Shown in pieces: positions 44,557-48,673 of a stretch of DNA of 64,000 nucleotides. Origin of the DNA: Leptolyngbyaceae cyanobacterium (GTDB lineage Bacteria; Cyanobacteriota; Cyanobacteriia; Phormidesmidales; Phormidesmidaceae); the NCBI GenBank assembly GCA_965263355.1, contig CBDHHL010000032.1:608001-672000 (forward strand), given 5' to 3'. The translations under genes were made by a program, and so were the position numbers. Position 1 is the first letter of the stretch. The number at the start of each line of letters is the position of its first letter. The notes beneath the pieces are model-generated. The model did no database searches. It saw only the letters and a list, made by a program, of their open reading frames with translations, and was not told the origin of the DNA.

Positions 44557-44803
44557 CCATGGCTGTTTTTATCAACGAAACTGCAGAATTTGATTATTGT
44601 CGAACAGGCTGCTCAAAAACTAATGTAGAAACACTGATAGATAGGGTTTTCTGACATTTGGAAATGTTCTGTCATCGGTACTAACGAAATGCCTTAAATA
44701 ACCTTGTGCATCTAAGTAGCAAAAACGCGTCAAATAAATGTTGGGGGCAACTGACCGTTAATGCTTTAGCATCTACAACAGCCATAGATAGTGAACATGA
44801 ACC

Positions 44804-45493
44804 ATGGGCCCCACATCCAACGAAACACCTGCCGGTAAAATCCTGATTGTTGACGATCACCAGGTCGTCCTGAGTGGCACCATCGATATCCTGCGTCAAC
44901 ACTACCCAACCTATGACTTATTAACGGCTAAAACAGCCCAGGAAGCGCTTGAGAAATTAGCCAACCATCGACTTGACCTGGCGATTTTAGACCTGTCTAT
45001 TCCTGACGCGTTACACCAGGATGCCAAGGTGGAAACTGGCATTGAGCTACTTAGGCAAGTGATGAAACACTACCCCGAGCAAAACATTGCCATCCAAAGC
45101 ACCTACATCAAGGCTCTAGTTCGAGTTAGATCCGAGATCGACAGCCATCAGGGTGGCTTTACCATCGTCGATAAAAGCATGTCTAGCCAGGACATTTTTC
45201 AGCGCATTGATGGTGCCTTAAAAGGATTTAGCCATACCCGAGGCATTAAAGCACTACAGGCTGGCATCGAACTAAAACCCGAATGGCTACAGGTTCTCAC
45301 CTTTGCGTTTCATGAAGGTCTACAGGACAAAGCCATTGCCCAAGCACTGAGCGTACAACCCAGCACAATTCGCCATTACTGGAATAAACTCTACGACGTG
45401 CTGGAAATAGACCCTGAGCTAGACAAAAAGGAAGGAAAAAATCTGCGTAGCCTAACTGAAATCCGTGCCCGTGAGCGAGGGCTACTGGACTAA
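44804..45493 (+). CDS. NarL/LuxR-type response regulator
   Basis: ILIVDDH, AILDLSIP receiver domain; C-terminal HTH (GLQDKAIA..TIRHYW). Confidence 0.92.
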   Translation: MGPTSNETPAGKILIVDDHQVVLSGTIDILRQHYPTYDLLTAKTAQEALEKLANHRLDLAILDLSIPDALHQDAKVETGIELLRQVMKHYPEQNIAIQSTYIKALVRVRSEIDSHQGGFTIVDKSMSSQDIFQRIDGALKGFSHTRGIKALQAGIELKPEWLQVLTFAFHEGLQDKAIAQALSVQPSTIRHYWNKLYDVLEIDPELDKKEGKNLRSLTEIRARERGLLD

Positions 45494-47460
45494 TGGACGC
45501 TGCTGGATTAGTAGAAGAACGGAGTCGCTGGGGAGAACTTTTAGAAAAGCTCAAAACAGGACTCTGGGGGATCGGTATTGTCGCATCCATCATAGGTGCC
45601 CGTTCCTTAGGCGCATTTCATGTTTTGGAACTTATGGCGTTAGATCGCCTATTTGCCACGCAGCTATCCTTTGAAACAGGCGATAAGGCCATCACGATCG
45701 TTGAAATTGGCCCTAACTATGCTGATGGTTCTGAAGAACAGGGCTACACCATTGATGCCACATCGTTGGCAGACGTCTTAGACAATATCTTCAAAAATGA
45801 ACCGGCTGTTGTTGGTGCAGATATCTTGTCTTATCGAATTACAGGAGATATTCAAAATAACCTGCTACCAACTATTGAAAAACATTCCAACCTGATTACA
45901 GTCGAGGGGATTTTAGCTAATCCAGCAGAGCCATTACCGGGTCTCTCTGAAACGCAATTAGCACAGCAAGTTGGATTTAATGACTTGGTTATTGATCAAG
46001 ATGGTACTGTTCGTCGTGCCCTTTTAGATGCCTATAAAAATGAAGAATATAGGACATCCTTTGCTATTCAGGTAATTCAGAGCTACTTCAAACGTGAAAA
46101 CTCCAGTGGTGAACGACTTGAATTGAAAAATGGTACTAAGGATTCAGCCACTATGAGTTTTGGAGAGGTTGAAATTCCAAGAATTAAAGCTGGATATGGA
46201 TATACTAGCGGTGATGTATTTAGTCTCCAAACCCTCATTAACTATCGAGGTCAGGTAAAACCATTTAAAGTTATTAGTGCGACTGATTTACTCACCTCCC
46301 AAAACGATCAAAATGACCTAATTAAAGATAAGGTCGTTATTATCAGCTTGGTAGGTTCACCTCACGACTATAAAATTCCACTAACCGTATTTAATCGTTT
46401 AATAGATAATTCTCAACTAGTTAACGGTGTCGAGATCCAGGCCTACGTTATCAATCAAGTTATTAAAGCAGTAGAAGATCAGCAACCACTTGTTTGGACT
46501 AATCGAACAGTTCAATATATATTCTTGCTATCTTTGTCAATTCTTAGCATTGTTGCTAGCAGATTTTCAAGGGATGTAATTAGTGGCTTTATTCAATTAT
46601 CGATTATTACTTTTTTAAGTATTTTACTTAGCTATATCCTATTGATGCAGATAGGTCTCTGGTTACCTCTGTCAGCTACCCTTGCGGCTGTCACTTCCAA
46701 TGGTCTTATCTACATTAACTATGCTCAAAATGAGCGTCGTTGGACTAGGTTAATAGCTCAACGAAACCTTGCTCTTGAAAAGGAACGCCATCTATCTGAA
46801 AAATTGGCTTTTGAACGGCAAAAAACGATAGAAAATGTATTTGACTCCATTCATAATGGCCCCTTGCAAACCTTAGCTAATTTATTAAGACGTACTCGCG
46901 ATGAGACAATTGGACTATCCGATATTTGTCTAAGCTTAGAGGATCTAAACCGTGAAATTCGCTATATCGGTGACTCTATTAAGCAAGATGCCACGGAGAA
47001 AAAGGAACGTCTTGATGTTAGCTATGCAGGGACTAAATTTGATTTAAATATTCCTCTTCAAGAGCTATTTCAGGAAGTTTATGATGCAATGTTGTCAAGA
47101 CCTTTATTAGGATTTTCAGACCTCAAGTTCACTATCATATCGTTTGAGCCAATTGAGACAGAAATGCTCAATGTTGAAGTTAAGCGTAAACTATGTAGAT
47201 TTCTAGAAGAAGCCCTAGGAAATGTTGGAAAACATGCTGTTGGAGCTACACGGTTAGTGGTGACCGGAAAAACTAAAGACAACTATTATGAGTTAACCGT
47301 AGCTGATAACGGTCCCGGTTTTCCTCATCATGATACTGAAGCTGGTGAAGGCACCCGTATCGGTAAGGAAATTGAAAAATTAACTCGAGGTAAATTTGTA
47401 CGTAGACAAAATGTACCTAAAGGTTTCTTCTGTCAATTAACGTTTCCGATATCAATCTAA
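45493..47460 (+). CDS. CHASE2-domain sensor histidine kinase (HisKA_3-type)
   Basis: CHASE2 motifs (VGADI, VGFND...D.DG.VRR, GVEIQA), three TM helices, H-box IHNGPLQ, EALGNVGKHA, DNGPG; TAATG stop/start overlap with the regulator. Confidence 0.9.
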   Translation: MDAAGLVEERSRWGELLEKLKTGLWGIGIVASIIGARSLGAFHVLELMALDRLFATQLSFETGDKAITIVEIGPNYADGSEEQGYTIDATSLADVLDNIFKNEPAVVGADILSYRITGDIQNNLLPTIEKHSNLITVEGILANPAEPLPGLSETQLAQQVGFNDLVIDQDGTVRRALLDAYKNEEYRTSFAIQVIQSYFKRENSSGERLELKNGTKDSATMSFGEVEIPRIKAGYGYTSGDVFSLQTLINYRGQVKPFKVISATDLLTSQNDQNDLIKDKVVIISLVGSPHDYKIPLTVFNRLIDNSQLVNGVEIQAYVINQVIKAVEDQQPLVWTNRTVQYIFLLSLSILSIVASRFSRDVISGFIQLSIITFLSILLSYILLMQIGLWLPLSATLAAVTSNGLIYINYAQNERRWTRLIAQRNLALEKERHLSEKLAFERQKTIENVFDSIHNGPLQTLANLLRRTRDETIGLSDICLSLEDLNREIRYIGDSIKQDATEKKERLDVSYAGTKFDLNIPLQELFQEVYDAMLSRPLLGFSDLKFTIISFEPIETEMLNVEVKRKLCRFLEEALGNVGKHAVGATRLVVTGKTKDNYYELTVADNGPGFPHHDTEAGEGTRIGKEIEKLTRGKFVRRQNVPKGFFCQLTFPISI

Positions 47461-47625
47461 ATCAGTAATAAATCAGACATTTAACCCATCCTTTTATCTC
47501 AAAATAATTATATAAAGGAGTAAGGGAATAAAGACTATTTACTTGTTTTTTTATTCCTAATAAATAGACAATATTTAAGATGTCAGGCAAACATCTATCC
47601 ACGTCAACCTAATAATTTCTAGGAG

Positions 47626-47808
47626 GTGATTAAAACGTCTGCATTAAGCATAACAAAGCGGCTATGGCTCAATTTAGTTATAGCAACATTCATTTCCCTG
47701 CCCATCATTCCTTTGACGGGTATTGCTGCTAACGCTAATTTTGAACCGCAACTACCGCGACCAGATCCTGGCCAGCCTACTGGTAGGACAGGGAGTTCTA
47801 CTCGCTGA
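47626..47808 (+). CDS. Small secreted Pro/Gly-rich peptide precursor (signal peptide + ~23-aa mature peptide)
   Basis: Basic N-region, hydrophobic H-region, ANA cleavage site, NFEPQLPRPDPGQPTGRTGSSTR*; AGGAGG at 47621; terminator follows. Confidence 0.65.
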   Translation: MIKTSALSITKRLWLNLVIATFISLPIIPLTGIAANANFEPQLPRPDPGQPTGRTGSSTR

Positions 47809-47841
47809 ATTTCCTAATTGGAAATGATTTAGATCACATAG

Positions 47842-47877
47842 GCGTGGTGATTTTATGCAAAATCACCACGCTTTTTT
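47842..47877 (+). terminator. Rho-independent terminator after the peptide gene
   Basis: gcgtggtgatttt-atgc-aaaatcaccacgc-tttttt. Confidence 0.85.
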
Positions 47878-47892
47878 AGTAAAGTCAACTGC

Positions 47893-48150: not shown

Positions 48151-48294
48151 ATGCCTTTCCTACCATTTTTCACAGTTTGTCTGGCCTTTTTTCTCTTCTC
48201 CGAAGTTTTGACTCCCAAGCCCCAGTCTAAGCAAAAGGAAACAAAAGATAACGCTACCAAACTGTTAATCGAGTTGAAAAACGCCGATAGTTGA
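48151..48294 (+). CDS. Small single-pass membrane protein (47 aa)
   Basis: MPFLPFFTVCLAFFLFSEVLTP hydrophobic segment then charged tail; GGAG upstream. Confidence 0.5.
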   Translation: MPFLPFFTVCLAFFLFSEVLTPKPQSKQKETKDNATKLLIELKNADS

Positions 48295-48673
48295 TTAACT
48301 CAGCAATTATTTGATTTAAGCACTAACTAACCTAGTTTGAGAGGACTTCACCATGATCGTTCTATCTTCAATGACAGCAATGAGAACACAGCGTCTAGAG
48401 TTATTCGCGACCTTGGTGATGTCCTTGTGGAATAAGCTCAAACAGCAACCAGGGTGTGAAGCGGATTGCTACTAATATCACATATTTATCTAATACGTTT
48501 TTGGTGTTGTTGATTGTAGGGATGACCGCATCTGAAAAGCGTTAACTCATTACTAACGCAACAGATCGCAACATTTTCTGGATCAGCAACGGTATTTCTC
48601 AAGTTTTGCTGTGACAGTCAGGGGTAAAGTTCGCTAAAAGGCGGCTTTGCTCCTTTTTCTTAAGTTTTACAGA

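Follow-up and report, generated by a model that had tools for sequence, protein, structure and literature searches.

What does the short open reading frame (ORF) behind a cyanobacterial CHASE2 kinase code for? The question is raised by a locus in a stretch of 64,000 nucleotides, here called the window, from a Leptolyngbyaceae cyanobacterium (assembly GCA_965263355.1, contig CBDHHL010000032.1, positions 608,001 to 672,000 of the forward strand). A response regulator gene, a gene for a CHASE2 sensor kinase, a small ORF and a terminator follow each other on the + strand; this arrangement had been described in a first-pass annotation made from the letters alone, and a renewed reading of the sequence agrees with it. 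The annotation proposed that the small ORF specifies an exported peptide acting as ligand of the adjacent kinase, a proposal now supported by the co-variation of peptide and receptor and by a predicted complex. We regard it as probable that the small gene encodes the cognate, strain-specific and shared ligand of its neighbouring kinase. That the peptide binds and regulates the window kinase we hold to be quite likely, and given such regulation the chances that it acts between cells, in the shared periplasm of a filament or in a biofilm, are a little better than even.

The peptide gene and its probable receptor

The small ORF ends at 47808. Its product probably carries a Sec-type signal peptide ending in A-N-A (47635..47736, + strand), deduced from the sequence and from the family pattern, directly followed by a mature peptide of 23 amino acids, NFEPQLPRPDPGQPTGRTGSSTR (47737..47805, + strand). 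This mature peptide is a homologue of the motif at the N-terminus of DUF928 proteins and a candidate CHASE2 ligand. The original description as a secreted ORF of ~60 codons stands with respect to the gene, the signal peptide and the mature part, and has to be changed with respect to the start. A GTG at 47626, which would give 60 amino acids, lies inside the Shine-Dalgarno sequence AGGAGGTGA (47621..47629, + strand), which is present in all 20 close-relative loci, and it is out of frame in loci L017 and L085. The codon found three to five bases after the Shine-Dalgarno sequence opens the frame in 20 of 20 loci, being ACG in 15, ATG in three and ATA in two. Because of this, and because the GTG is out of frame in two loci, the alignments make the near-cognate ACG at 47635 the most likely start in the window, with a precursor of 57 amino acids (47635..47808, + strand). 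Near-cognate start codons lower output. The use of ACG would also explain why gene callers miss such genes.

The 20 close-relative loci include the window; three duplicates were dropped and loci without the kinase end were unusable. All 20 have the small ORF behind the kinase with the same Shine-Dalgarno sequence and leader, most have the terminator, and insertions and deletions within the ORF are in-frame only. The ratio of the proportions of nonsynonymous and synonymous differences (pN/pS), calculated from simple counts without saturation correction for eight pairs chosen by likeness, is 0.18 for the mature peptide and 0.29 for the leader; the corresponding values are 0.30 (CHASE2), 0.10 (kinase core) and 0.03 (regulator). 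As far as sequence comparison goes, the small ORF is a real gene under purifying selection. A sigma-70-like promoter pattern is found 5' of the peptide gene in 13 of the 20 relatives and is absent from the window.

The gene has no Pfam family at E values up to 1 and no NCBIfam family, a search of the protein database gave no homologue, and there was no usable Atlas match; it should be noted that the protein collection contains only two of seven tested sequences of such peptides. A family profile finds the window ORF with an E value of 6e-13, the runner-up in the window having 0.13; the window ORF is itself a row of this profile, and the value is therefore a check of specificity only.

Judged by its sequence, the small ORF is the N-terminal motif of DUF928 proteins without the rest. 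In 57 DUF928-like frames a leader is followed by a motif that opens with aromatic-x-Pro and closes with small-small-x-Arg, ahead of the first Cys (51 were caught by a pattern script and the other six by eye). On a profile built exclusively from 42 full-length DUF928 motifs the window peptide scores 16.9 bits, which none of 200 shuffled sequences reach; for 16 of the 20 peptides at most five of 200 shuffles come up to the peptide's own score, the weak ones including L082 (89 of 200) and L017 (21 of 200). The DUF928 motif cited in the annotation is thus real. Some DUF928 paralogues (L161, L162 and L170) are strikingly like the free peptides L001 and L089 from the same genomes. The small ORF has no match to PF06051, the 184-position model of DUF928, and the full-length genes that occupy the slot at other loci do match it. 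DUF928 proteins share with the window gene the slot beside a CHASE2 receptor, the leader and the aromatic-x-P...small-small-x-R motif; the difference is that their domain starts about four residues before the motif Arg, at which the window gene stops, so that the domain is absent here. The only paper we found that names DUF928 reports, in the part of its text available, one CHASE2-DUF928-WD40 cluster and no idea of a ligand (PMC5587647).

In 76 of 78 rows position +2 behind the signal-peptidase site is aromatic and a Pro follows, the most constant feature of the family; 62 of these 76 have Ala at position -1. An ending in G-x-x-(T/S)-R had been suggested as a family rule, which does not hold: a C-terminal Arg occurs in only 26 of 53 scored stand-alone peptides, and the others end in another residue or a tail. 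Eight Stenomitos-type loci (L038, L045, L057, L066, L099, L109, L110 and L123) have a conserved tail L-F-E/R-x and no terminal Arg; their kinases have His at position 110 and Ser at position 312.

Peptide and receptor vary together. Across the 20 close loci the regulators share a mean identity of 0.92 and the kinase cores one of 0.79; CHASE2 is lower at 0.54, and the mature peptide is lowest at 0.43. The similarity of the peptides is correlated with that of CHASE2 with a rho of 0.61, and with that of the regulator with 0.12 (the L089 regulator is partial). The partial correlation with CHASE2 is 0.35 when regulator and kinase core are removed (1 of 2000 permutations) and 0.25 when the membrane part and the leader are removed as well (16 of 2000), both in permutation tests that ignore shared ancestry. 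Three peptide types, which were defined by eye, are grouped by the CHASE2 tree (92/90, 96/96 and 100/98) and not by the DNA tree of the regulator, which is poorly resolved. The expected co-variation is thus found, with a contribution from linkage. The window itself provides a single case in which kinase and peptide appear to have changed together and the DNA between them did not. It is nearest to L008 in the upstream region (0.83), the regulator (0.86), the spacer between kinase and peptide (0.68, other loci 0.35-0.51) and the downstream region (0.85), and nearer to L015 and L085 than to L008 in the kinase and the mature peptide (0.68-0.76 versus 0.44 for the peptide).

Co-folding was another check that had been proposed. 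The CHASE2 domain comprises kinase residues 30-352 according to Pfam (45580..46548, + strand). A prediction with CHASE2 residues 40-338 and residues 31-60 of the ORF, i.e., seven leader residues plus the mature peptide, gave a complex with a score of 0.74 (runs 0.60, 0.75 and 0.74), the best of three controls having 0.02; the score mark, which is rough with our own alignments, is reached by 116 of 157 solved pairs and by 2 of 215 mismatched pairs. The runs agree in at least 84% of the contacts, and the predicted local distance difference test value (pLDDT) of the partner is at least 65. No solved relative of CHASE2 was found in the PDB by sequence, or by fold at E 0.001, the best structural match (Z 5.4, root mean square deviation 3.6, 128 aligned) not being a clear one, which makes it unlikely that the prediction reflects memory of a like complex. 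The predicted complex supports binding of the peptide to CHASE2.

The peptide site in the model consists of kinase residues 110, 163-167, 312-316 and 210-221. The tightest predicted contacts go from peptide residues 55-59 to residues 163-167, 110 and 312-316, which are hallmark motifs of CHASE2. Asp is found at position 110 in all 56 kinases with an Arg-motif ligand versus 9 of 22 with a non-Arg ligand, a pattern noticed post hoc and resting on two clades; among 29 columns that are otherwise conserved, D110 shows the greatest change and G312 ranks third.

The predicted contacts also bear on a different view of the product, namely that it is not cleaved and as a small membrane protein with one helix modulates the kinase through its transmembrane part. 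MgrB modulates PhoQ as a small membrane protein. The hydrophobic segment of the precursor is under purifying selection (pN/pS 0.29), the membrane part of the kinase co-varies with the peptide, and some distant members have no clear A-x-A (the 14 of 76 rows without Ala at -1). In the window clade, however, the motif immediately follows A-x-A, full DUF928 proteins have the same leader, and the contacts of the model all lie in the soluble motif; we consider an uncleaved product very improbable.

Distribution of the putative ligand gene

To see how homologous loci are built we used loci fetched with an alignment of 26 regulators. The 160 loci represent the best 80 of 473 genome matches and the best 80 of 210 metagenome matches, and are thus best hits and not a random sample. 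Removal of identical kinase tails left 127 loci and omission of L091, which has a broken kinase, 126; 117 have a full kinase, and six of these end too early to judge, leaving 111 decidable loci. Downstream of the kinase 54 of them have a stand-alone peptide, 35 a full DUF928 gene, one has both and 21 have neither (a ligand gene in 90 of 111), in hand-curated classes that include a frameshifted DUF928 gene (L078) and genes cut by the end of the locus (L054 and L143). The ligand genes of L032, L054, L071 and L143 were detected by the profile and not by the regex screen. The possibility that the window ORF is a unique truncation among loci with full DUF928 genes is at variance with these numbers, stand-alone peptides being found at 54 loci versus 35 with the full gene.

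The stand-alone forms are found in several separate parts of the locus tree, a quick tree with midpoint root which shows grouping and not the direction of change. The window clade has 26 rows, all of them stand-alone. The peptides of two Nostocales loci, L071 and L075, have the motif Arg as their last residue, and the motif is near-identical to that of the neighbouring full DUF928 proteins. With the window clade and L021 this makes four separate parts of the tree in which the stop comes exactly after Arg.

These data have to be compared with the idea that the small ORF arose by decay of a DUF928 gene, of which the signal peptide and the motif are left with no role for the kinase. The Nostocales slot does show what looks like stages of decay: full DUF928, the frameshifted gene of L078, short copies whose tails are unrelated (L155), loci with no ligand, and kinases from which CHASE2 is deleted. 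Decay would not account for a clade of 26 rows which are all stand-alone, for the purifying selection and in-frame indels, for the conserved Shine-Dalgarno sequence, start position and terminator, for stops at the same Arg in four parts of the tree, or for the predicted binding. It is in our opinion highly unlikely.

The CHASE2-deleted kinases are nine in number (six were checked with Pfam), and none of the eight with enough flanking sequence has a ligand gene. They are located at about four places in the tree; at three of these the closest full kinase, too, has no ligand gene. Loss of the ligand gene goes together with a block of exporter genes upstream of the regulator (see below): where the block is absent a ligand gene is present in 55 of 56 loci, and where it is present in 28 of 46. 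All CHASE2 deletions and 18 of the 21 ligand-less loci fall in the exporter-block group. In this tree ligand loss is concentrated in one lineage, and because the genomes are related the counts would represent one or few events.

The annotation stated that cyanobacterial CHASE2 genes often lie beside DUF928 genes. Two relative genomes bear this out, with 15 of 17 and 13 of 15 DUF928 genes at most 3 kilobases (kb) from a CHASE2 gene; many CHASE2 genes in these genomes are without DUF928. The relatives have 14-27 CHASE2 genes and 10-17 DUF928 genes each. A search of five genomes for further stand-alone peptides of the window subfamily gave, besides weak matches, only the known slot in four of them and one full DUF928 gene in the fifth. 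A regex screen found no motif peptide beside the orphan CHASE2 genes of one relative. CHASE2 proteins without DUF928 are often located beside an exported protein that by eye is FecR-like (L173, L178, L179, L185, L186 and L187), which suggests a second class of CHASE2 partner.

Two further variants of the motif were seen. In L191 (3278-4105) and L192 (4953-5792) a DUF928 gene belonging to a paralogous regulator-CHASE2 kinase cassette has two tandem motifs, each ending in Arg, in a polyprotein-like manner. In four Phormidesmis-type loci (L019:9072-9566, L020:3966-4295, L022:9029-9385 and L025:9002-9403) the peptide gene is followed 3' by a second exported protein of low complexity with an extra copy of the motif inside.

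Several observations weigh against the peptide being the shared ligand of the kinase. The main unexplained fact is the existence of 21 receptors without a ligand gene: these loci of the 111 keep an intact CHASE2 kinase, and no ligand gene is found up to ~4 kb past it. Fourteen of the 21 are in one Nostoc clade, and a search of four of these Nostoc genomes gave no close ligand copy elsewhere, the best matches being 37-39% identical; the matches that were fetched are mostly beside other CHASE2 genes. (A fifth genome searched alongside, that of L071, has the peptide in the slot.) The terminal Arg is missing from 27 of 53 stand-alone peptides. The kinase core (partial correlation 0.29) and the membrane part (0.35) also track the peptide, so linkage explains part of the co-variation, and shared ancestry is left aside in the permutation tests. 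As to the complex, the prediction used our own alignments and a peptide that still had seven residues of the leader, and a passing score does not separate cognate from related peptides. The interface columns do not separate the peptide types significantly better than other variable columns (p 0.12) and are not more conserved (0.57 versus 0.59 in 78 kinases), and the Asp pattern at position 110 is post hoc and depends on two clades. Finally, the window locus has no linked exporter for passage across the outer membrane.

Proposed mode of action and related systems

A mechanism for the cassette can be proposed along the following lines. The 57-residue precursor would be made at a low level from ACG behind a strong ribosome-binding site, exported by Sec and cut by signal peptidase after A-N-A, which would give a free peptide of 23 residues in the periplasm. 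In the model its C-terminal T-G-S-S-T-R lies along the conserved strand 163-167, against D110 and G312-Q316, and its N-terminal F-E-P region is near CHASE2 residues 210-221. Binding would shift the membrane part with its four helices together with the DesK-like core and, as in other two-component systems, thereby alter the phosphorylation of D63 of the regulator in one direction or the other. Because the types of peptide and receptor match each other and differ between strains, the signal would be picked up by the filament that made it or by its kin, and other strains would not respond to it. In filamentous cyanobacteria the periplasm is common to the cells of a filament. Full DUF928 proteins with the same N-terminal motif would present this ligand in a tethered form or in one that can be cleaved off.

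The peptide might bind CHASE2 and nevertheless stay in the periplasm of its producer as a co-sensor. Its loss through a leaking outer membrane, a protease or failing secretion would then be read as a monitor of the envelope, and no message would pass from cell to cell. Sec export ends in the periplasm, and the lack of a linked outer-membrane exporter fits such a role. Full DUF928 (~250 amino acids) adjoins TPR-CHAT proteases and ShlB/POTRA transporters. The specificity of the pairs may serve to insulate paralogues, since relatives hold 14-27 CHASE2 genes. Insulation of paralogues does not, however, require that orthologous pairs in sister species switch type jointly, and the folded domain that could hold the peptide back is missing from the stand-alone form. 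We find a purely cell-autonomous role unlikely, though by no means negligible, and rank the strain-specific shared signal above it.

A much wider formulation would be that CHASE2 is a peptide receptor and the N-terminal motif of DUF928 its general ligand, presented at the end of a larger periplasmic protein (from which an Arg-cutting CHAT protease might release it) or made directly as a free peptide, and that the pair is used for strain-specific, kin-restricted signalling between cells of filamentous cyanobacteria as in Gram-positive peptide-kinase systems. Clan CD proteases often cut after Arg. We put this forward tentatively, as a generalization somewhat more apt to fail than to hold.

Three-component peptide cassettes are known from Firmicutes, e.g., agr, ComCDE, ComQXPA and bacteriocin inducers such as PlnABCD. 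These have a dedicated processing or export enzyme with a double-glycine or AgrD-type leader, and their peptides build up outside the cells as density rises and act back on their own genes. The window locus resembles them in having a peptide gene beside the kinase and regulator genes, and in the combination of a conserved regulator and kinase core with a variable peptide and sensor which change together as types, here with a contribution from linkage. In Nostocales the cassette moreover follows a C39-peptidase ABC exporter and an HlyD gene, as bacteriocin regulators do. The differences are that the host is diderm, that the leader at the window locus is of Sec type and no enzyme devoted to processing or modification is encoded there, that the multi-helix membrane sensor is replaced by a soluble CHASE2 domain on a DesK/NarX-like kinase, and that the ligand also exists as the N-terminus of a larger protein.

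Within the cyanobacteria a close comparison is with PatX and PatS. According to the accessible part of one paper, the PatX sequence contains HRGTGR, and PatX depends on the peptidase PatP and inhibits the cytoplasmic HetR (PMC12756182). The window product would likewise be a small Sec-exported precursor acting through the periplasm, with the differences that the PatX motif is absent and that the likely target is a membrane kinase. It could be argued that this peptide, too, is trimmed after export to a short C-terminal Arg-Gly peptide, is re-imported and inhibits a cytoplasmic regulator instead of acting on CHASE2, the Sec signal, small size and Arg-Gly-rich end being common to both as far as PatX is described in that part of the source. 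The pattern RG(S/T)GR occurs in none of the 78 rows, the gene is in fixed linkage to CHASE2 and co-varies with it, and the motif is common to DUF928, and we give such a mode of action hardly any chance.

Other CHASE2 receptors have been studied, and the papers are here represented by passages of their text. The Sinorhizobium meliloti adenylate cyclases CyaD1, CyaD2 and CyaK with NsrA respond to a signal of protein nature (PMC13001267, PMC7529298); that signal is plant-derived and needs an outer-membrane receptor, the output is cyclic AMP, and the passages show no direct CHASE2 ligand. Dgc2 of Leptolyngbya boryana is, like the window kinase, a cyanobacterial CHASE2 receptor; its output is cyclic di-GMP with effects on motility and biofilm, and in the passages seen its ligands are called unknown and no peptide partner is described (PMC10581220). 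CHASE2 has also been called a small-molecule receptor (PMC8195603), and mtxA precedes a CHASE2 cyclase (PMC4439547). The passages at hand from a paper on bacteriocin clusters contain none on two-component or CHASE genes (PMC3140520). In Creative Commons-licensed PubMed Central and bioRxiv texts, a scope which leaves subscription journals and supplements outside, no description was found of a CHASE2 peptide ligand or of a regulator-kinase-peptide cassette.

CHASE2 is a widespread sensor. An unmodified peptide of 23 residues can be synthesized and tested on one purified domain, which makes the question of a CHASE2 ligand directly testable, and contact residues as well as natural cognate and non-cognate pairs are available as controls. 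With 14-27 CHASE2 and 10-17 DUF928 genes per relative, one answer could open much unread signalling in cyanobacteria. Passage from cell to cell, if it occurs, would make the peptide a quorum or kin signal of cyanobacteria that build mats and reefs.

The other genes of the locus

The response regulator has 229 amino acids (44804..45493, + strand) with a receiver domain and a probable C-terminal LuxR/NarL-like helix-turn-helix. The receiver matches Response_reg of Pfam above the cut-off (E 2.7e-12), and its D17, D18, D63 and K124 are invariant in 26 homologues; the match to GerE is weak (E 0.16, 12.1 bits versus a cut-off of 23.5). Several homologues carry PF00196 and are labelled NarL/FixJ family at the source, and the nearest named relatives are marine Leptolyngbyaceae, Leptothoe and Adonisia. 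The coupling of regulator and kinase had been read correctly: they overlap by one base in TAATG, the kinase starting on the stop codon of the regulator.

The kinase has 655 amino acids (45493..47460, + strand), with a first transmembrane helix, the extracytoplasmic CHASE2 domain, three more transmembrane helices and a DesK/NarX-like core with H454. CHASE2 (PF05226) is found with E 1.9e-37 and 129.7 bits versus a cut-off of 26.3, flanked by transmembrane helices in the structure model, and HATPase_c with E 2.1e-6. Pfam reports no HisKA_3 at E values up to 1, and the NCBIfam matches to UhpB, NarX and MacS are weak and below the cut-off. The core is likely to be of NarX/DesK type because H454 is invariant in 78 kinases and DesK structures are the best fold matches. 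The description of the pair as NarL-type regulator and HisKA_3 kinase would fit the receiver, H454 and the DesK folds, and lacks Pfam support as to GerE, which stays below the cut-off, and HisKA_3. The intrinsic terminator (47840..47878, + strand) consists of a hairpin and a U-run; its stem of 15 pairs (47840-47873, -24.5 kcal/mol, z -6.5, 0 of 200 shuffles) is kept in most relatives with compensating changes.

The exporter block consists of a C39-peptidase ABC exporter, an HlyD protein and a protein of ~235 amino acids, directly 5' of the regulator and on the same strand. It is present in L034 (1308-5875) and 56 other loci, mostly of Nostocales (57 in all before removal of duplicates), and the loci of the window clade have no C39 exporter upstream. 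A candidate target of the regulator in Nostocales is this neighbouring exporter. The ~235-residue protein was considered as kinase-like from its appearance and this was rejected, since Pfam gives nothing for it and BLAST no significant match to the cassette kinase; by eye it has Arg at the expected position of the H-box His in 59 of 75 frames. Deep synteny with the HlyD gene (76 loci) was likewise abandoned, as two unrelated subfamilies are involved: the HlyD-family gene of the window is located 3' of the cassette in convergent orientation and is 20-26% identical to the Nostocales HlyD.

Two small ORFs follow 3' of the terminator on the + strand. The first (48151-48294) has 47 amino acids with a hydrophobic N-terminus and BLAST matches in nine loci; the second (48353-48475) has 40 amino acids with a Cys-rich C-x-x-D-C end and matches in 19 loci. 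Both were seen by eye in further close relatives, neither has a Pfam or NCBIfam family, and they are possibly unannotated small proteins or targets of the regulator. On the other side of the cassette the region 5' of the regulator (44584-44803) contains blocks strongly conserved across 16 relatives, which may be promoter or regulator sites or a leader RNA.

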